Shown: positions 3,801 through 58,048 of the stretch, in pieces
Numbering within the stretch: the stretch's first letter is position 1
How the letters are laid out: every line of letters starts with the position of its first letter
From: a phage
DNA: 64,000 nucleotides
Sequence record: PX436236.1
Reading direction: 5' to 3' (one strand)
Notes under the pieces: model-generated
Database searches by the model: none
The model's input: the letters and a program-made list of their open reading frames with translations, nothing else
What the model was told of the DNA's origin: nothing
Program-made: the position numbers and the translations under genes

Positions 3801-4394
3801 TTACTTAAGTGAATTAATGTAGTCTTCGATATCAGCAGAAGTCGTATCCATTCCAACTTGTGGGCCTTTAAACGTTTCTACACGAAGCAGGGTGTCTTCA
3901 ATATCAATCTTAGTCAATGCAGCGATTTCAACAACATCATCGGCAGTAGCAATACCCAGGGCAGCCATATTACGAGTTTCACGAATGTACTCAAGCTTAA
4001 CCGCTAGTTCCTGGCGAGAGTCATCAAGTTCCTTAACCTTCAGTTTAATTTCATTACGCATTTCGATATAATCATCGGCTTTCTTACGAAGCTGGGTAGC
4101 TGTACGACGATAAAGGAGGCCAAGTTTAGCATGTACCTGGACATCAGCGCCTCCGGCAATCAGTTTACGAATTTCACGTTCTTTAGAAGCAGCGAGCTGG
4201 TCTTTTTCATTAGCCAATGCACGAATACGTTTTTCTTCATTCACAGACTTAACATGAGCAGTCTGGAGTTCAGTGATTTTATCAATCAGAGTAGAAGCAG
4301 CTTTTGTGTATTGGTCTTCGATTGACAGGTTCTGAGCCATTGCGGTGCCCAGTTTAGAACGAATGAATTCAACGATTTTCTTTAAAGTGTTCAT
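3801..4394 (-). CDS. coiled-coil protein (197 aa), weak resemblance to PspA/IM30-type helical proteins
   Basis: ATG with AAGGAA SD; own GTTTAC/TATAAT promoter upstream; sequence predominantly helical and charged. Confidence 0.5.
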
Positions 4395-4437
4395 AGTATT
4401 TCCTTCAGTTGGTTAACGTTTTGTAATCCATGAGGAC

Positions 4438-4467
4438 ATTATACCCTGTCCTCTGAGGTTTGTAAAC
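4438..4467 (-). promoter_or_regulatory. early sigma70-type promoter (GTTTAC -35, TATAAT -10) with overlapping stem-loop
   Basis: Minus strand GTTTAC-N18-TATAAT upstream of 3801-4394; inverted repeat aggaca/tgtcct spans -10. Confidence 0.55.
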
Positions 4468-4470
4468 ATT

Positions 4471-4869
4471 TTATTTCATTTTTGCGAGGCAAATTTCATT
4501 GGCTTCCCATTGAGCTTGCTTAATAATAGCTTTGGATACAGGAGCCCTTTGGCCATAAGTTTTTGACGTTGAGAGAACAATATGTTTGTTTGCTTCATTA
4601 TGCCAGCCCCATGATTTTTCGCCATGAGTACCTTTAACTACAGCTGACACCTCAACAGAGCAACCACCATCAGAAATCTTGGTTTCGACAACCCATTCAT
4701 TTCTCTCAGCAGCTTCAATTTCTAATCTAGTTTTTTCTTCATACATCGCGGCCCAATCAGTTTTTGCCAAGTTGAAAGTAAGAGCTTTCTCTAGTTCTTT
4801 GGCATATTTTTGTTGTTCAGGTGTTAATGAATTATACAACTCTTGCATTTCTTTATCTTCGATATTCAT
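4471..4869 (-). CDS. hypothetical protein (132 aa)
   Basis: ATG with GAGGAG SD; early promoter plus 10-bp inverted repeat upstream. Confidence 0.5.
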   Translation of the reverse strand: MNIEDKEMQELYNSLTPEQQKYAKELEKALTFNLAKTDWAAMYEEKTRLEIEAAERNEWVVETKISDGGCSVEVSAVVKGTHGEKSWGWHNEANKHIVLSTSKTYGQRAPVSKAIIKQAQWEANEICLAKMK

Positions 4870-4894
4870 TATGTTCTCCTCAAATTATGGGCTC

Positions 4895-4924
4895 ATAATA
4901 TCTTAATCATGAGCCCATGTAAAC
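4895..4924 (-). promoter_or_regulatory. early promoter (GTTTAC -35, TATTAT -10) with 10-bp inverted repeat
   Basis: Upstream of 4471-4869; ATGGGCTCAT/ATGAGCCCAT inverted repeat. Confidence 0.5.
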
Positions 4925-4927
4925 GTT

Positions 4928-5191
4928 TTATTTCATATTATTGAAATAATTTTCTGCATCAAAATCATTACCATGGTAAACTTTGGTAGACGATTTGGCG
5001 TAACCTTCAGCTGAGAACATATTAATCACAACTTTAATTGTATACCACTGTCCATCTTCATTACCCATTACTGCATAGGTTTCATACACCGGGTGTTCAG
5101 GACCGATAACCTTAATATCGTTAACTGTGGCACCAAATTCTTCCGGAACACATTTCATAAAGAAATTAAACACTTCACCATAATTATCCAT
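4928..5191 (-). CDS. hypothetical protein (~87 aa)
   Basis: ORF-track start 5206 is GTG; ATG at 5191 (MDNYGEV) has AAGGAG SD. Confidence 0.5.
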   Translation of the reverse strand: MDNYGEVFNFFMKCVPEEFGATVNDIKVIGPEHPVYETYAVMGNEDGQWYTIKVVINMFSAEGYAKSSTKVYHGNDFDAENYFNNMK

Positions 5192-5226
5192 TTTACTCTC
5201 CTTCACTCTGTTGTTTTGATAGGTCT

Positions 5227-5255
5227 ATAGTATCATGTTCTACGAAAGAGTAAAC
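5227..5255 (-). promoter_or_regulatory. early promoter cassette (GTTTAC-N17-TACTAT) containing GGTCTATAG motif
   Basis: Shares gataggtctatagta core with 8315-8352, 8641-8682 and 42579-42617. Confidence 0.55.
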
Positions 5256-5280
5256 ATCTTTTTTAAACCTTTTAGAAACA

Positions 5281-5307
5281 AAAAAGGCCCAACCTTTCGG
5301 AAGGGCC
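5281..5307 (-). terminator. intrinsic terminator (GNRA-loop hairpin plus T-run), repeat copy 1
   Basis: Minus strand GGCCCTTCCGAAAGGTTGGGCC then TTTTT, just after stop of 5313-5867. Confidence 0.6.
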
Positions 5308-5312
5308 TAGAA

Positions 5313-5867
5313 TCAGTTCTTGTAGAACCGGAATGGGTTTATGTGGAAGGCTAACATAGCCTTAGGGATTTTACGAGACAAAAGACTCTTAAGTTTCCAA
5401 CCACAGTATACACGAAGGTAAAAGGTAATCCCACCTACTTTAAGATACGGAACTGAAGCAAAGACTCCCCATGCTTCGTCATTCCACATCCATAACCATC
5501 CATGATGAGCTTTATCAGGAGAACCGGATTCAACGTCAGGATTACCACGATAATGGAATTCTGAGCTACAATCGCGTCCAAGTTTATGGTAAGCAAAGTT
5601 ATAAGCTTTATTTCGCCATAGCCAAGCTACCCTCTGGAGATAAACACCGCCCGGCATTTTCCTGATTTTAGCCCAACGTTTAATATGACCTTTGTCACCG
5701 TCAATTGGATTATCGTATGTCATCATCCAATCAAAGCCGTACGGTAATTTACCTGTCTTTTTATTGTGGAAAGGAACCACAAATGGGGCAAGGATAACAG
5801 CCAGAACCATAGAGATAAAATCTAGTGGGACCAACAGAACCCAACTCAAATATTTTAAAAGTTTCAT
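5313..5867 (-). CDS. membrane protein (N-terminal TM helices), ~184 aa
   Basis: ATG at 5867 lies downstream of the terminator hairpin at 5891-5906; the longer ATG at 5972 would bury that terminator in coding sequence. Hydrophobic N-terminus LSWVLLVPLDFISMVLAVILAPFVV. Confidence 0.5.
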   Translation of the reverse strand: MKLLKYLSWVLLVPLDFISMVLAVILAPFVVPFHNKKTGKLPYGFDWMMTYDNPIDGDKGHIKRWAKIRKMPGGVYLQRVAWLWRNKAYNFAYHKLGRDCSSEFHYRGNPDVESGSPDKAHHGWLWMWNDEAWGVFASVPYLKVGGITFYLRVYCGWKLKSLLSRKIPKAMLAFHINPFRFYKN

Positions 5868-5883
5868 ATATTTCTCTAAGTTA

Positions 5884-5906
5884 ACCAAAAAGCCCCAGAT
5901 GGGGCT
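5884..5906 (-). terminator. intrinsic terminator after internal-protein-like gene
   Basis: AGCCCCA/TGGGGCT hairpin followed by T-run on minus strand. Confidence 0.6.
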
Positions 5907-5910
5907 TTCG

Positions 5911-6375
5911 TTATTTGATTTGTTTAGCAGACCAGATACGGTCTTTGATGATTTTCTGAATATCTTCAACATACTCTAAGTCGTGAGCATGTGGATTATC
6001 TTTGAAGCTATGTGCTCGTGCCAGTTTCTGGCCTTCTGTTTTGATTACTAAAAGCTCTTTAAGAATTGCTTCATACTTAGAAATAATTCCTTTGGCGATA
6101 TTTTTTTCTTGAGCGGCTTTAGGGTCCGCTTTTGACGCAGGTGCTTTACCTGTAGCTTTCTGGAACAATTCACCTGATGCAGCTAGGCTTTTAAAAACTC
6201 GGCTAACAGTATTAGCATTAGTAAAACCTTCGGCTTTAAAATCTTTAATAAAACGGAAACGTTCTTCATCAGAGGCGTCTTTGTAAGAATATTTACCTGC
6301 TTGAATTGCTGCAATCGCAGCGGCTTTTACATCTGAACTAGATTGTTCAGTCAAAAATTCATTGTAAGTTTTCAT
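5911..6375 (-). CDS. internal-protein-like (capsid-targeted) protein, 154 aa
   Basis: N-terminus MKTYNEFLTE matches the T4 internal-protein capsid targeting sequence (MKTYQEFIAE, L/I-x-E cleavage motif); late promoter TATAAATA immediately upstream. Confidence 0.6.
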   Translation of the reverse strand: MKTYNEFLTEQSSSDVKAAAIAAIQAGKYSYKDASDEERFRFIKDFKAEGFTNANTVSRVFKSLAASGELFQKATGKAPASKADPKAAQEKNIAKGIISKYEAILKELLVIKTEGQKLARAHSFKDNPHAHDLEYVEDIQKIIKDRIWSAKQIK

Positions 6376-6401
6376 ATTATTTCCTAAGTTAGTTTACTAC
6401 A

Positions 6402-6409
6402 TATTTATA
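6402..6409 (-). promoter_or_regulatory. T4-type late promoter (TATAAATA)
   Basis: Minus-strand TATAAATA ~27 nt upstream of ATG of 5911-6375. Confidence 0.55.
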
Positions 6410-6410
6410 C

Positions 6411-6438
6411 AAAAAAAGCCCAACCTTTCGGAAGGGCC
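6411..6438 (-). terminator. intrinsic terminator, repeat copy 2 (after tRNA region)
   Basis: Same GCCCTTCCGAAAGGTTGGGC hairpin plus TTTTTTT. Confidence 0.55.
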
Positions 6439-6439
6439 T

Positions 6440-6820
6440 TTAACCTAGGGTAACCTTGTCGGGGTTCCACCTGCTAGGCAAGTGTTTGTACGAAACGCCG
6501 GGATTCGAACCCGGTTATTAAGTAGTTGACGCCACTCAATATTTTTAAAAGGCCATATCTCGACCATATCCGAACGTTCCGTCAAAAACGCTACTCGGCT
6601 TACGGCAAAGATATTTCCTCGAATCGATAATTCGGTGCGCCGTTTCTGCTGTGATGTAAGGGGACGTTAACAGATCGTAAAGATTTGTTAATGCCAGTCC
6701 TTACTCAGGGAACATCAGTCCGACGACTTACCGGTAGCGACCCGGTTTCTTGTTTGTTGCGCCGGTGAATGCTGGTAATCAGTCTTCATACGACGGCTTG
6801 ACTATATAATAGTCTTCATT
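6440..6820 (-). other. ORF-free structured region next to tRNAs, with orphan tRNA-like T-arm (6494-6512)
   Basis: No ORF of 60 aa or more; CCGGG/TTCGAAT/CCCGG T-arm-like hairpin and other stem-loops; position analogous to T4 small stable RNAs. Confidence 0.3.
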
Positions 6821-6895
6821 TGGTATCCCGCCCTGGGATCGAACCAGGACCGCAAACTTAGAAGGATCGTATGCTATCCATTACACCAGCGGGAC
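6821..6895 (-). tRNA. tRNA-Arg (anticodon TCT)
   Basis: Cloverleaf folded by hand: 7-bp acceptor stem, T-arm CCTGG/TTCGATC/CCAGG, anticodon loop CTTCTAA, encoded CCA. Confidence 0.75.
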
Positions 6896-6900
6896 GTAGT

Positions 6901-6977
6901 TGGTGACCCAGACCAGATTTGAACTGGTAACCTTTCCCTTATGAGGGGACTGCTGCTAACCATTGAGCTACAGGGCC
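6901..6977 (-). tRNA. tRNA-Met/Ile (anticodon CAT)
   Basis: T-arm ACCAG/TTCAAAT/CTGGT, anticodon loop CTCATAA, encoded CCA; acceptor stem has one T-T mismatch, D-arm atypical. Confidence 0.6.
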
Positions 6978-6982
6978 TTAAA

Positions 6983-7249
6983 TCAAACTACAAATCCAGC
7001 AGGAGCATTATCATCTTTAGCCATGTGCTGAATTGTATGATAAGTCATTTCTTCAGGAGCAACCAGATAAGCCGCAGCGTTAACTAGTGGAATTATTTTT
7101 GGTTTAGCGAATGTGCTATCGGCAATTGCCATAAAGGGCTCGCCGTCGGTCTCAACTTCACCAAATTGACATTCATACGAAATAGAACAACGTTTGGTAG
7201 TTGTTGTCTTGGTTTCTGGGTCGTAAAAAGCTAATTTTAATACTAACAT
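6983..7249 (-). CDS. hypothetical protein (~88 aa)
   Basis: ORF-track start 7255 is GTG; ATG at 7249 with GAGGTG SD. Confidence 0.4.
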   Translation of the reverse strand: MLVLKLAFYDPETKTTTTKRCSISYECQFGEVETDGEPFMAIADSTFAKPKIIPLVNAAAYLVAPEEMTYHTIQHMAKDDNAPAGFVV

Positions 7250-7428
7250 AAACACCTCAAATAAAATTAAGTAAAGTAAGTTTGATTAATAGACCTTGTC
7301 TATTATGAAAGGCTCTTTGAGGGAAGAACCTTTGGTAATAGAGGGTTACTTAATAATGTTAGAGTAATAATAACACATTACTCTTAAAGCATATTACTAT
7401 TTTTAGGAATAGTCTGGTCAAATTTGAT

Positions 7429-7719
7429 TCATTGTGGCCACATATTAATGTAATCAAGTTTAATAGAAGCAATCTTCAAAGGATTTTTAAAGATGTCGTA
7501 TTCGATCAATCCGTTTTCAGTTGCGGTGTAGAAAGTAAAGTTAACAGAATTATAACGGCGACCATTAACTTTTAGTTTAACGTCGCTTGAACTACGACCA
7601 ATATTAACCTGTTGGACATCAAGCACAGCACCTTTGCCAAAGTTGCGAATCAGTAGCTCTGCTGCAACCTGGTCTGAATTATAGCCATTCTCTGGATTAG
7701 TAACCTTAACGTATAGCAT
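7429..7719 (-). CDS. hypothetical protein (96 aa)
   Basis: ATG start abutting stop of upstream gene. Confidence 0.45.
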   Translation of the reverse strand: MLYVKVTNPENGYNSDQVAAELLIRNFGKGAVLDVQQVNIGRSSSDVKLKVNGRRYNSVNFTFYTATENGLIEYDIFKNPLKIASIKLDYINMWPQ

Positions 7720-8100
7720 TTAACCCTCGTCTACAATAGTATGGGTATTAGCATTAACAATCTGCCACCAGTCAAAACGATTGGAACCGTAAAGAGGGTT
7801 ATTCTCATTTTCTTTAATGATATCGCGCAGTTCATCTTCAGTAGCGGCCTTTGCGATTAAGTCGGCATAACCGCCACGAGGGTAATAGTTATCACCCGCA
7901 AAGAGCAAAAAGTTTGTTTTGATATTCTTGAATTCTTCAAGTGTAATAACGGACCCATTGGGTTGAACAATATCCACATAACTATACCCTAATTCCTGGG
8001 CTTTATCTACCGCCTCAAGCAGGGTGTCGTGTGCCCACCCAATTTGACAATCTGGTTTTTCAGATGGATTTGCCTGATAATCTGCATACACTTTATACAT
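7720..8100 (-). CDS. hypothetical protein (~126 aa)
   Basis: ORF-track start 8148 is TTG; ATG at 8100 (MYKVYADYQ) lies 1 nt after stop of upstream ORF (translational coupling). Confidence 0.5.
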   Translation of the reverse strand: MYKVYADYQANPSEKPDCQIGWAHDTLLEAVDKAQELGYSYVDIVQPNGSVITLEEFKNIKTNFLLFAGDNYYPRGGYADLIAKAATEDELRDIIKENENNPLYGSNRFDWWQIVNANTHTIVDEG

Positions 8101-8101
8101 T

Positions 8102-8287
8102 TTACTCACCTTTAGAGATTTTATCCATAACAAAAGAAATTGAACCAATTAAAAATGCCACTACTAAAGAGATTATATTCTCGGAAGTTGAAAGCATATC
8201 GAGCATGAATCCTGCAAACATACTAAAGCCAAAAGCGGTAACAGCGGCCAGTGCAGTAACATTTCTAATTAATTCACAACGTTTCAT
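8102..8287 (-). CDS. small hydrophobic membrane protein (~61 aa)
   Basis: ATG at 8287 with GGAGA SD (track start 8299 is TTG); single TM-like segment; early promoter at 8324-8352. Confidence 0.4.
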   Translation of the reverse strand: MKRCELIRNVTALAAVTAFGFSMFAGFMLDMLSTSENIISLVVAFLIGSISFVMDKISKGE

Positions 8288-8323
8288 TTTATTCTCCAAT
8301 CACTCATTTGTTTTGATAGGTCT

Positions 8324-57119: not shown

Positions 57120-58048
57120 TGTATACTTTACAAGAATTTCAGAATCAGGCAATTAATATTGACCTACAAAGGAATAACCTGTTTAGTGTGGTATTTGCCA
57201 CAGTTCCTTCTTCTAAATCTCAGACGCTCCTCGACCAGTTCGGTGGAGCTTTATTTAACAATATCCCATTGAATAGCGATTTGTTTGGTATTACACAAGG
57301 AGAGTTGACCCAAGGTGTTACGACATTAGTGACAGCGGGCACTCAGAAGTTGATTCGTAAGTCAGGCATAAGTAAATATTTGATTGGAGCTATGTCATCC
57401 AGGGTTGTGCAGAGCTTACTAGGAGAGTTTGAAGTAGGTACATATCTGATGGATTTTTTCAATATGGCCTATCCTACGGCAGGTCTTTTAGTCCACGCCG
57501 TTAAAATCCCGGATAATACTTTGAACTATGAAATGGATTTGAACCACAACTCACCTAACATCAAAATTACCGGAAGAGAATATTCTCCATTAGTATTAAG
57601 CTTCCGTATGGATTCTGAAGCTGCTAACTACCGTGCTTTTAATGATTGGGTCAATAGTGTTCAAGACCCTATTACACAATTAAGAGCATTACCGGAGGAT
57701 GTTGAAGCTGACATTCAAGTCAACCTTCATTCCCGTAATGGATTACCACATACGGTAGTAATGCTTAATGGTTGCGTTCCAATGAGCGTATCTTCCCCGG
57801 AATTATCTTACGACGGTGATAACCAAATTGCTTCATTTGATGTTACATTTGCTTATAGAAGTGTACAGACTGGTGCAGTTGGCAAACAAGCTGCTTATGA
57901 ATGGTTGGAAGATAAAGTCCTTAAAGGCGTGGCGGGTATAAGTGAGAGCAATTCCCTGAGTTCTTCAGTAGCTAAATTAAGCCGACTTTCAGGAGCTTCT
58001 AGTGGATTAACAGGATTGGTTAATAGTGGAATATCGAGGTTGTTATAA
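57119..58048 (+). CDS. 54: gp54 baseplate tail-tube initiator
   Basis: 309 aa; synteny. Confidence 0.85.
   Translation: MYTLQEFQNQAINIDLQRNNLFSVVFATVPSSKSQTLLDQFGGALFNNIPLNSDLFGITQGELTQGVTTLVTAGTQKLIRKSGISKYLIGAMSSRVVQSLLGEFEVGTYLMDFFNMAYPTAGLLVHAVKIPDNTLNYEMDLNHNSPNIKITGREYSPLVLSFRMDSEAANYRAFNDWVNSVQDPITQLRALPEDVEADIQVNLHSRNGLPHTVVMLNGCVPMSVSSPELSYDGDNQIASFDVTFAYRSVQTGAVGKQAAYEWLEDKVLKGVAGISESNSLSSSVAKLSRLSGASSGLTGLVNSGISRLL

Follow-up and report, generated by a model that had tools for sequence, protein, structure and literature searches.

T4 species 1 and species 2 RNA orthologs beside two phage tRNA genes, and a predicted tRNA-shaped fold of rnaC supported by covariation

What does a phage keep in an interval that lies next to its tRNA genes and carries a perfect tRNA T-arm, yet gives no tRNA with ARAGORN or Rfam? 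Positions 6440-6820 of the 64,000-nt phage sequence analyzed here (record PX436236.1; the whole stretch is referred to as the window) pose this question. An earlier note, made from the letters of this DNA, had described the interval as lacking ORFs and had suggested that it might be a tRNA remnant or a small stable RNA like the species 1 and species 2 RNAs of T4. The interval indeed holds only trivial ORFs, one of 46 aa that starts with TTG and two more of 34 and 27 aa, and the record of phage QL01 has no CDS there. The suggestion of a small stable RNA was borne out, since the region consists of orthologs of these already known T4 RNAs, rnaC and rnaD, in T4 order and position. As a finding this is ordinary. 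Sequences of the T4 species 1 and species 2 RNAs date from the 1970s, and what rnaC and rnaD do has been a question for about fifty years.

The locus and its relatives

In the comparative alignment with related phages that the note had proposed, the minus strand of 6407-6756 aligned with the T4 stretch annotated as rnaD (species 2) and rnaC (species 1). Over its whole annotated length rnaC is identical to T4 rnaC at 137 of 139 positions (98.6%), with both differences keeping pairing, and rnaD is identical to T4 rnaD at 106 of 121 (87.6%). As in T4, the two lie behind tRNA-Arg and ahead of the terminator. The flanking genes showed 70-82% identity to those of T4 (local blastn for the 75% upstream stretch), and the Dhakavirus phages QL01 and WG01 showed 100% identity to the window. 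All features of 6411-6977 are on the minus strand, in the order tRNA-Ile(CAU), tRNA-Arg(UCU), a 66-nt insert, rnaD, rnaC, a trailer hairpin, and a terminator (Table 1), and together they very probably make up the tRNA/stable-RNA operon of a T-even relative of the JS98 type (Dhakavirus).

Table 1 Features of the locus, in the order in which they are read along the minus strand
Feature	Position	Strand	Basis or remark
Candidate middle-promoter region	7301-7397	-	75% homologous to the T4 stretch from trna.2 to the first tRNA (local blastn)
MotA-box-like TGCTTTA	7385-7391	-	Sequence reading; 12 nt upstream of TATTAT (7367-7372)
tRNA-Ile, anticodon CAU	6901-6977	-	ARAGORN; Rfam RF00005, 53.9 bits; alignment with T4 tRNA-Ile and the T6 CAT tRNA
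tRNA-Arg(UCU), AGA reader	6821-6895	-	ARAGORN; Rfam RF00005, 48.8 bits; alignment with T4 tRNA-Arg
66-nt insert	6750-6815	-	Alignment; between 'CCA-AAUGA' and the conserved rnaD start
rnaD, conserved core	6634-6749	-	T4 annotation; alignment; RNAalifold; fold
rnaC, 139 nt, tRNA-shaped (predicted)	6489-6627	-	T4 homology; covariance model R1; structure test
rnaC P1, 5' strand of acceptor-like stem, CGAUUCG	6620-6626	-	Pairs with 6491-6497
rnaC long arm P2-P3-P4, in D-arm position	6550-6619	-	RNAfold on 13 homologs
rnaC P5, 10-bp hairpin in anticodon-arm position	6516-6541	-	Compensatory changes in 9 of 10 pairs
rnaC T-arm, CCGGG-UUCGAAU-CCCGG	6498-6514	-	5 bp kept in 21 of 21 sequences, one covarying pair
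rnaC P1, 3' strand, CGUUUCG	6491-6497	-	Directly after the T-stem, as in tRNA
3' trailer hairpin, CACUUGC-CUA-GCAGGUG	6468-6484	-	Sequence reading; between rnaC and terminator
Operon terminator, GGCCCUUCC-GAAA-GGUUGGGCU, then U7	6411-6439	-	Alignment; homolog of the T4 terminator after species 1

The two tRNA genes were the only convincing ones, in agreement with the earlier note: ARAGORN found these two minus-strand genes and no others in the 64 kb, and in the Rfam scan nothing but these two reached the gathering score. Their bodies match those of T4 tRNA-Ile and tRNA-Arg at 100% identity. The reduced tRNA set, correctly remarked upon in that note, is an ordinary and published property of JS98-type phages, for which three tRNA genes have been reported, with none in RB49 (PMC2993671). 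Here tRNA-Arg starts 5 nt downstream of tRNA-Ile, whereas T4 and Dhakavirus IME540 have the homing-endonuclease gene segB between the two; the CCA of tRNA-Ile is encoded in this phage but not in T4. T4 tRNA-Ile(CAU) reads AUA after lysidine modification, and AUA and AGA are both rare codons in E. coli. AUA accounts for 17.5% of the Ile codons in the ORFs of the window, and AGA for 14.8% of the Arg codons.

In T4, the tRNAs and the two stable RNAs are carried on a single transcript of ~1.75 kb that terminates after species I (PMC2330249). Upstream of the tRNAs in this phage, TGCTTTA and TATTAT together suggest a candidate middle promoter of the operon, judging from the letters; a sigma-70 consensus scan of 6300-7500 reported no promoter. 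The terminator was missed by a consensus terminator scan because its stem has two U·U mismatches here. The trailer hairpin is conserved in T4-type phages and is retained in IME540 although rnaC is missing there. The RNAs would be excised from a single polycistronic transcript by host enzymes of tRNA maturation. On the 5' side of the acceptor-like stem of rnaC, the cut would be made by RNase P, only 5-6 A/U-rich nt past the CCA-like sequence that ends the upstream tRNA or rnaD, and exonucleases would trim the 3' ends. The mature RNA ends predicted for this phage are transferred from the T4 annotation.

rnaC, a phage-restricted RNA with a tRNA-shaped fold

rnaC is a member of a phage-restricted RNA family of ~147 nt. 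The covariance model R1 gave 162 bits at 6485-6630, its sole match in the window. Homologs are present in tRNA clusters from at least eight Tevenvirinae genera (Tequatro-, Dhaka-, Moon-, Karam-, Kanagawa-, Kagamiyama-, and Gelderlandvirus, together with Marfa-like Klebsiella phages). These homologs score 130-170 bits with R1, occur as one copy per locus, and lie in constant orientation inside or at the end of the tRNA cluster; four are flanked directly by tRNAs, namely those of EcS1 (Phe/Trp) and of fGh-Ecl01, Melville, and COW86c (Trp/Gly). A second R1 match in phage Moon (25 bits) proved to be tRNA-Gln. In Dhakavirus IME540, rnaC is precisely absent, which implies that it is dispensable at least on some hosts.

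We found no evidence for a cellular origin. No match was obtained in 5,426 E. coli genomes, and although a strict pattern of the rnaC end motifs matched 98 bacterial or archaeal contigs, the 80 scored with R1 all had 16 bits or less. Pattern matches on viral contigs (L021-23, L027-32, L034-38, L146, and L150) were judged by eye or by the model to be due to chance. No Rfam family matches rnaC or rnaD, whether in the window or in its relatives, and automated pipelines will therefore keep missing them. Both are unannotated in the QL01 and WG01 records, and many other phage records give this stretch as a 'hypothetical protein' or a pseudo-tRNA.

The structure of rnaC was tested on 21 distinct sequences with 33 pairs (693 cells), using 500 shuffles and slid controls. 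Pairing was kept in 98% of the 693 cells and 16 of the 33 pairs had compensatory double changes, while only 35-47% of cells were paired in the slid controls. None of the 500 shuffles reached the observed percentage paired, the number of pairs or of cells with double changes, or the covariation score; 27 of them reached the count of further pair types. The folding energy of the window copy was also lower than that of shuffles (z = -3.4). The predicted tRNA-shaped fold of rnaC is thus supported by covariation.

The T-arm in this fold is the one reported in the earlier note, which had correctly recognized it but had placed it at 6494-6512 instead of the minus-strand site given in Table 1. Its core pattern GGTTCRANYCC occurs three times in the window against 0.40 expected, a count reached in 0 of 100 shuffles. 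Two of the sites are the T-arms of rnaC and tRNA-Arg; the third (57535-57545) lies inside a 309-aa ORF, has no stem, and is a chance match. The T-loop is non-canonical in the Kanagawavirus MY742 group (UGCAUGC), and classical T-loop recognition is therefore not universally required.

The note had also stated that the T-arm lacked a foldable acceptor. This does not hold, as the two ends of the 139-nt RNA form an acceptor-like stem, P1, whose strands are ~120 nt apart, so that the stem is not visible beside the T-arm. Watson-Crick pairing holds in all 21 sequences at five of its seven positions, one of which covaries (A-U in 6 sequences, G-C in 15); the other two are invariant U·U mismatches. 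P1 is followed by U-ACA here and in T4, and by U-CCA only in the Klebsiella-phage clade. In the T4 annotation, rnaC starts 1 nt before the predicted stem, and its 3' end, ...GUA, lacks CCA; both suggest that maturation is not strictly tRNA-like. An internal acceptor pairing of CGGAACG (6575-6581) with the same 3' strand, which was picked by tRNA finders, was rejected in favor of P1: only 81% of its cells were paired, no better than in shuffles, with no compensatory changes and with one position unpaired in 13 of the 21 sequences. The hairpin that the note had pointed out near 6622 (CGAAU-UAUCG-AUUCG) is present at 6620-6634. It straddles the junction of rnaD and rnaC, and its 3' arm is the 5' strand of P1; it is not conserved outside the T4-type group and is weakened even in T4.

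The remaining two arms may contact each other. P5 has a loop of 6 nt, CGUCAA (6526-6531). The long arm has the base helix AGG/CCU and ends in the loop UUGACG (6580-6585), and all four pairs of its P4 helix covary. The two loops are complementary with pairing 100% kept, and in the Klebsiella-phage clade both have changed together to UUGGCG and CGCCAA (A-U to G-C). A GG in an internal loop (6553-6554) is a candidate partner of T-loop positions 55/56. The loop-loop pairing and the GG/T-loop contact are candidate interactions, each suggested by a single clade-level change. The comparative model thereby gives specific testable features, namely a terminal stem with U·U mismatches, a T-arm, complementary loops, and a possible GG/T-loop contact.

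rnaD and the 66-nt insert

A second structured RNA, separate from rnaC and less widely distributed, is rnaD. As defined for T4, it would be a stable RNA of ~119 nt in infected cells; its T4-equivalent 5' end is at 6754 here, so that rnaD would span ~6754-6634. It has a 5' hairpin, ACCGG-GUCGCUA-CCGGU, followed by a long irregular stem that is closed by GUCGUCG and CGGCG-C-AC and carries a variable distal hairpin. RNAalifold showed compensatory changes in 10 of 33 pairs, and the fold had z = -2.6 against shuffles. The 5' hairpin, the basal stem, the 3' end ...GGCGCACC, and the site between tRNA-Arg and rnaC are all common to the T4 and window copies. However, T4 encodes ...CACCA where the window has ...CACCG, and the distal hairpin has diverged from T4, matching copies of the Tequatrovirus sb3 type at 98% instead.

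In T4, the 5' end of rnaD directly follows the CCA of tRNA-Arg, whereas here the 66-nt insert intervenes. The insert, which seems specific to the Dhakavirus lineage, was found in only 27 records and is almost invariant (98.8-100% identity); the records whose taxonomy was checked (QL01 and IME540) are Dhakavirus. Two hairpins are predicted in it, with a fold z of -3.0 against shuffles, and in this phage rnaD may be extended by it at the 5' end. The insert and rnaD have the motifs AAGYCGUCG, GACUGAU, and CGGCGCA in matching order. A shortened duplicate of rnaD was nevertheless rejected, as the global alignment score of 51.5 was within that of shuffles (47.9 ± 4.3, maximum 61) and not significant.

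Possible roles and comparison with known RNAs

In T4, RNAC and RNAD are late RNAs by northern blot with unknown function (PMC9697503, PMC3014915), and T4-infected cells accumulate rnaC as a stable species of ~140 nt (PMC9697503). We tentatively propose that rnaC persists as a non-decoding tRNA mimic with a hidden 'anticodon' loop. As modelled, its role might be that of a decoy or competitor for a factor that recognizes tRNA shape, for example a host defence that targets tRNAs or an enzyme that processes or binds them, a role that is possible rather than probable. More doubtful is the broader proposal that rnaC founds an uncatalogued, phage-only family of 'blind' tRNAs in T4-like phages of enterobacteria. 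Enzymes of tRNA processing would still mature these RNAs, which would be non-decoding and would act in trans as decoys or competitors for such a factor, perhaps a host defence that cleaves tRNAs or a tRNA-maturation enzyme. In them an arm inserted in the D-loop would fold back and pair with the loop in the anticodon position. If true, such a decoy would explain why rnaC travels with phage tRNA genes, and also the convergent host-adaptation mutation in the neighbouring rnaD, a SNP that arose during the adaptation of a T4-like phage to a semi-permissive host (PMC12685909).

Alternatively, the two RNAs could be cis-only processing or stability elements, with 3' structured 'caps' and RNase sites that would protect the polycistronic tRNA precursor and steer its maturation, the excised RNAs being by-products. 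The co-orientation of the element with tRNAs, its usual place close to or at the 3' end of the cluster before a terminator, the constant distance of 5-6 nt from the upstream CCA, and the dispensability of rnaC in IME540 would all suit this explanation. We nevertheless consider it unlikely, because in EcS1, fGh-Ecl01, Melville, and COW86c the element lies between tRNAs and not at the 3' end, its loops and single-stranded segments are invariant to a degree that a protective hairpin would by no means require, and discrete stable species accumulate in T4 (PMC9697503). A trans-acting sRNA (rnaC, rnaD, or both) that base-pairs with host or phage mRNAs through the conserved loops or the A-rich linker is decidedly unlikely. 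UUGACG, CGUCAA, and an AAAAU linker are invariant and unpaired, the literature loosely speaks of 'small regulatory RNAs' (PMC9697503), and the SNP in rnaD is both convergent and adaptive (PMC12685909). However, the mutual complementarity of the two invariant loops and their joint change in one clade fit an internal contact better than an external target, and T4 has no known functional trans-acting sRNA (PMC3014915).

The reading of the region as one or more decaying tRNA pseudogenes, left without a function of their own after the loss of six of the eight T4-type tRNAs, is largely refuted and very improbable. It draws on the perfect T-arm, on the gain and loss of genes in the T-even tRNA region (PMC2330249), on the lack of rnaC in IME540, on a 94-nt 'tRNA-Stop(tta)' called by ARAGORN on one rnaC variant, and on GenBank records that label rnaC tRNA-OTHER or tRNA-Lys. 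Against this, T4 has all eight tRNAs and yet both RNAs at the same place, rnaC is far better conserved than the flanking genes, the internal 'acceptor' pairing is without covariation, and T4 rnaC is a stable RNA by northern blot (PMC9697503). The compensatory changes across several phage genera also speak against the tRNA remnant suggested earlier. That the interval encodes small proteins, as the 'hypothetical protein' entries placed here in many phage records imply, can be practically dismissed: the three ORFs exist, but they are short, have TTG starts, and correspond to nothing annotated in QL01 or T4, substitutions track RNA pairing and not codon positions, and T4 makes stable RNAs from the corresponding DNA.

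Among these explanations, the decoy role of a tRNA-shaped rnaC is our tentative best guess. Of the known systems with which rnaC can be compared, the closest is T4, whose rnaC is on the same strand, is the last RNA gene of the tRNA operon, and has the same terminator, T-arm, and (by homology) ends. The T4 operon differs in having eight tRNAs and segB and no insert before rnaD, compared with two tRNAs, no segB, and the 66-nt insert in this phage. With canonical tRNA (RF00005), the modelled rnaC shares a four-way junction, a terminal stem abutting a 5-bp T-stem with a UUCGAAU loop, a GG placed for T-loop contact, co-transcription with tRNAs, and tRNA-like spacing. Unlike tRNA, it is 139 nt long, with an arm of ~70 nt replacing the D-arm and 1 nt replacing the variable loop; it has a 6-nt loop complementary to another loop instead of a free 7-nt anticodon loop, two U·U mismatches in the acceptor stem, and no CCA encoded in this phage. 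ARAGORN called no tRNA on the rnaC of this phage and RF00005 scored below its 29-bit threshold; the best match of the tRNA clan on the region was tRNA-Sec, with 16.6 bits against a gathering score of 47.

No tmRNA was found by ARAGORN or among Rfam matches at E <= 10, and rnaC has neither a tag ORF nor G3·U70. YrlA gave no Rfam match at E <= 10 in 6300-7100, and E. coli, which is in the host range, largely lacks the Ro partner of YrlA. mascRNA gave a partial match of 14 bits, to the T-arm alone. What the tRNA-like domain of tmRNA, YrlA, and viral or lncRNA tRNA-like structures such as mascRNA have in common with rnaC is the general idea of an acceptor/T-arm module that is attached to domains other than those of tRNA and is acted on by tRNA enzymes.

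Orthologs of the T4 species 1 and species 2 RNAs

A search of phage records with positions 6380-7000 matched about a thousand T-even relatives. In the T4 record, "rnaD, species 2 RNA" and "rnaC, species 1 RNA" are annotated on the aligned stretch, directly downstream of tRNA-Arg, and the pairwise alignment of the window with T4 was collinear over the whole stretch between the rnaD start and the terminator. The ends of both RNAs were obtained by transferring the T4 coordinates through this alignment. The window's rnaC and rnaD are orthologs of the T4 species 1 and 2 RNAs, so that the small stable RNA proposed in the earlier note by likeness to these species was correct as orthology. The feature is already known in T4 and is merely unannotated in the genome of the window.

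Since the tRNAs lie on the minus strand, the features described earlier are read on that strand, which puts the interval 6820-6440 downstream of the tRNAs. Only trivial ORFs were present in this interval, where the earlier note saw none. The T-arm that it called an orphan is real and belongs to rnaC, but is located at 6498-6514, not at 6494-6512. The T-arm core motif occurred three times in the window (0.4 expected). The third match, a T-loop-like GGTTCAAATCC at 57535-57545 on the minus strand, was dismissed as chance because it had no flanking stem; the site falls within a 309-aa ORF of the opposite strand.

Features of the tRNA and small RNA locus
Feature	Position	Strand	Description
Late-promoter motif	6402-6409	minus	perfect T4 motif TATAAATA, directly after the operon terminator
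rnaC	6489-6627	minus	137/139 positions identical to T4
P1 (rnaC)			acceptor-like terminal stem of the RNA's two ends, CG(A/G)UUCG with CGUU(U/C)CG; all sequences retain 5 Watson-Crick pairs
T-arm (rnaC)	6498-6514	minus	abuts the 5' side of the P1 3' strand, a tRNA-like arrangement; all sequences retain the 5 bp
P5 (rnaC)			10-bp hairpin in the anticodon position, one nucleotide before the T-arm; 9/10 pairs covary; 6-nt loop CGUCAA
P2-P4 (rnaC)			long arm in the D-arm position; two sequence types; terminal loop always contains UUGACG
rnaD	6634-6754	minus	106/121 positions identical to T4; differences mostly in the distal hairpin
66-nt insert	6750-6815	minus	between CCA-AAUGA and the conserved rnaD start, by alignment with T4
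tRNA-Arg(UCU)	6821-6895	minus	ARAGORN and Rfam; body same as T4 tRNA-Arg
tRNA(CAU)	6901-6977	minus	ARAGORN and Rfam; body same as T4 tRNA-Ile
90-aa ORF	6983-7255	minus	QL01_138, hypothetical; flanked by the first tRNA and a candidate T4-like promoter region

The tRNAs and both RNAs of T4 share one ~1.75-kb transcript, with termination after species I (PMC2330249). Northern blots have confirmed RNAC and RNAD as late RNAs "of yet unknown function" (PMC9697503; also PMC3014915), and when a T4-like phage was evolved on a semi-permissive host, all three lines gained the same rnaD SNP (PMC12685909). Within 4000-8300, the RNA cassette was 91-100% identical to T4, compared with 70-82% for the flanking e.6, e.8, trna.3, and trna.4, and the rnaD-rnaC stretch shared 98% identity with the Tequatrovirus Shigella phage sb3. 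This conservation reflects either very strong selection on the RNA genes or recent exchange between genera. The remaining value of the locus lies in the comparative structure and in documenting a missing Rfam family.

Covariation-supported fold of rnaC and structure of rnaD

Single-sequence folding gave a four-way junction common to 13 rnaC homologs. The structure was named on an alignment of 21 distinct rnaC sequences and its pairs were then counted, with 500 shuffles and slid partners as controls. Standard pairs filled 98.0% of 693 cells, compared with 88% in the shuffles and 35-47% with slid partners, and 16 of the 33 pairs had changes on both sides. None of the 500 shuffles reached the observed percentage paired, the counts of pairs or cells with double changes, or the covariation score, while 27 reached the observed count of further pair types.

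The earlier note saw no foldable acceptor; an acceptor-like stem (P1) does exist, built by the distant ends of the RNA. One of its pairs switched between A-U and G-C, and its two U·U mismatches were invariant. The T-arm had one covarying pair, and all four tested pairs of P4 covaried. The loops UUGACG and CGUCAA were perfectly complementary in 21 of 21 sequences. Throughout the Klebsiella-phage clade the pair is UUGGCG with CGCCAA. This change, a single evolutionary event, is compensatory and points to a tertiary or kissing contact between the loops. In the same clade (retrieved sequences L039, L040, and L147-L149), rnaC ends in CGUUCCG-U-CCA with CCA encoded; in all other clades the 3' end is U-ACA.

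The long arm has at its base an internal-loop GG (6553-6554) whose placement resembles that of G18-G19 in tRNA. In the MY742 group, the one clade with a non-canonical T-loop (UGCAUGC), the first G of this GG is replaced by C and T-loop position 55 by G. This co-change, noticed post hoc, is suggestive only and hints at a possible contact.

The internal "acceptor" chosen by tRNA finders was unsupported on testing and was rejected. The calls resting on it included a tRNA-Sec (16.6 bits) and a 94-nt "tRNA-Stop(tta)" that ARAGORN placed on an rnaC variant lacking 1 nt (980-1073 of retrieved sequence L015).

The fold of rnaD comprises a 5' hairpin and a long stem whose basal helix is invariant and whose distal part is variable or replaced, with compensatory changes in 10 of 33 pairs. 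The adjacent 66-nt insert was limited to 27 phage records, which hardly differed in its sequence; the two with taxonomy checked, QL01 and IME540, are both Dhakavirus. It is predicted to form two hairpins, folds better than shuffles (z = -3.0), and contains the rnaD basal-stem motifs AAGYCGUCG, GACUGAU, and CGGCGCA in the same order; the overall similarity between insert and rnaD was not significant.

Distribution of rnaC and its possible roles

rnaD was restricted to Tequatrovirus- and Dhakavirus-type phages, whereas rnaC was far more widespread. Copies of rnaC were retrieved from Kagamiyamavirus EcS1, Karamvirus fGh-Ecl01, Gelderlandvirus Melville, Kanagawavirus (MY742, IME523, KLB31, and Kosakonia phage 305), Moonvirus Moon and NM4.3, Erwinia phage COW86c, Citrobacter phage Ursula, Marfa-like Klebsiella phages, and viral metagenome contigs. 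A covariance model built from the 21 distinct sequences detected a single copy at each locus, with scores of 130-170 bits; its only match in the window (6485-6630) scored 162 bits. Always in the orientation of the tRNA cluster, rnaC takes up precisely the space separating two tRNA genes in EcS1, fGh-Ecl01, Melville, and COW86c; elsewhere it comes last, ahead of a terminator or CDS. A constant 5-6 A/U-rich nucleotides separate the upstream CCA (or CACC end of rnaD) from the first base of its terminal stem.

No relative of rnaC was found outside phages: E. coli genomes gave no match, and in bacteria and archaea the 80 contigs scored with the model (of 98 with end motifs) all remained at or below 16 bits. 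The model also found no rnaC in Dhakavirus IME540. Compared with window positions 6440-6760, rnaC is precisely missing from IME540 (1488-1660 of the retrieved sequence), where GGCGCACCGAA is followed directly by CACUUGCC, and tRNA-Arg, the 66-nt insert, rnaD, and the trailer are kept. IME540 represents either a natural clean deletion of the rnaC module or an empty site. No Rfam family matched rnaC, whether the window's copy or those of three distant relatives. GenBank phage records often label rnaC/rnaD DNA as one to three "hypothetical proteins", tRNA-OTHER, or tRNA-Lys, a systematic mis-annotation that we attribute to the missing RNA family model.

Kanagawavirus tRNA clusters contained additional conserved ORF-free stretches (MY742, 1142-1426 and 1653-1760 of the retrieved sequence; L042 and L046, two other retrieved sequences, downstream of rnaC). 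One is the gap of 285 nt that separates tRNA-His from tRNA-Met in MY742, and the sequence AUUUAUGAUUUGUGUGGUGAAAUUUGGUAGACACGACUGG after rnaC is common to MY742, KLB31, and Kosakonia phage 305. Neither the gap nor the AUUUAUGAUUUGUGUGGUGAAAUUUGGUAGACACGACUGG stretch gave a tRNA or Rfam match; these stretches may be additional small RNAs.

The operon layout, together with established tRNA biology, suggests that the tRNA-maturation machinery would release the RNAs from the polycistronic transcript. P1 stacked on the T-arm could form a minihelix recognised by RNase P and 3' trimming enzymes, and the spacing of rnaC to the upstream CCA end is tRNA-like. According to work reported in the 1970s-80s, the T-loop of species 1 carries T and pseudouridine, and RNase P is involved in species 1 maturation. 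Mature rnaC would be shaped like a tRNA yet unable to decode, since its anticodon-position loop has 6 nt and is already occupied.

For such a molecule we tentatively prefer a role as mimic or decoy for a factor recognising tRNA shape, which we regard as possible and not as likely. That rnaC acts solely in cis, in the processing or stability of its precursor, seems improbable, and that it is a base-pairing regulator slightly more so. Two points count against an essential role: rnaC is naturally absent in IME540, and T4 phages deleted for the tRNA region remain viable on laboratory hosts.

The tRNA locus compared with T4

The window matches the Dhakavirus phages QL01 and WG01 at 100% identity. 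ARAGORN and Rfam agreed on exactly two tRNAs in the 64 kb, bearing out the earlier count, and both are on the minus strand. The same CAU and UCU pair was found again in several related contigs. The codons they read, AUA and AGA, are rare in E. coli; in the long ORFs of the window, AUA accounts for 17.5% of Ile codons and AGA for 14.8% of Arg codons.

Positions 7301-7397 were 75% identical to the region upstream of the first T4 tRNA. Upstream of the 90-aa ORF, a MotA-box-like TGCTTTA followed 12 nt later by TATTAT can be read within 7367-7391 on the minus strand, a candidate promoter for the tRNAs. The late-promoter motif TATAAATA precedes a 154-aa ORF at 5911-6375.

Only 5 nt (6896-6900) separate tRNA-Ile from tRNA-Arg, whereas segB lies between them in T4 (1928-2593 of the retrieved sequence) and IME540 (685-1350), indicating that the window carries a segB-less allele. 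The matches of KIT01 and LHE83 had ~0.6-0.7 kb of extra DNA in this gap, with a homing endonuclease annotated there in LHE83. SegB has been reported to recognise tRNA T-arm DNA (PMC2330249), and this motif is also present in rnaC. T4 has six further tRNAs and the segB homing-endonuclease gene, all missing from the window locus, and no counterpart of the 90-aa ORF at that position. The reduced tRNA set pointed out earlier is a published trait, with three tRNA genes in JS98-type phages and none in RB49 (PMC2993671).
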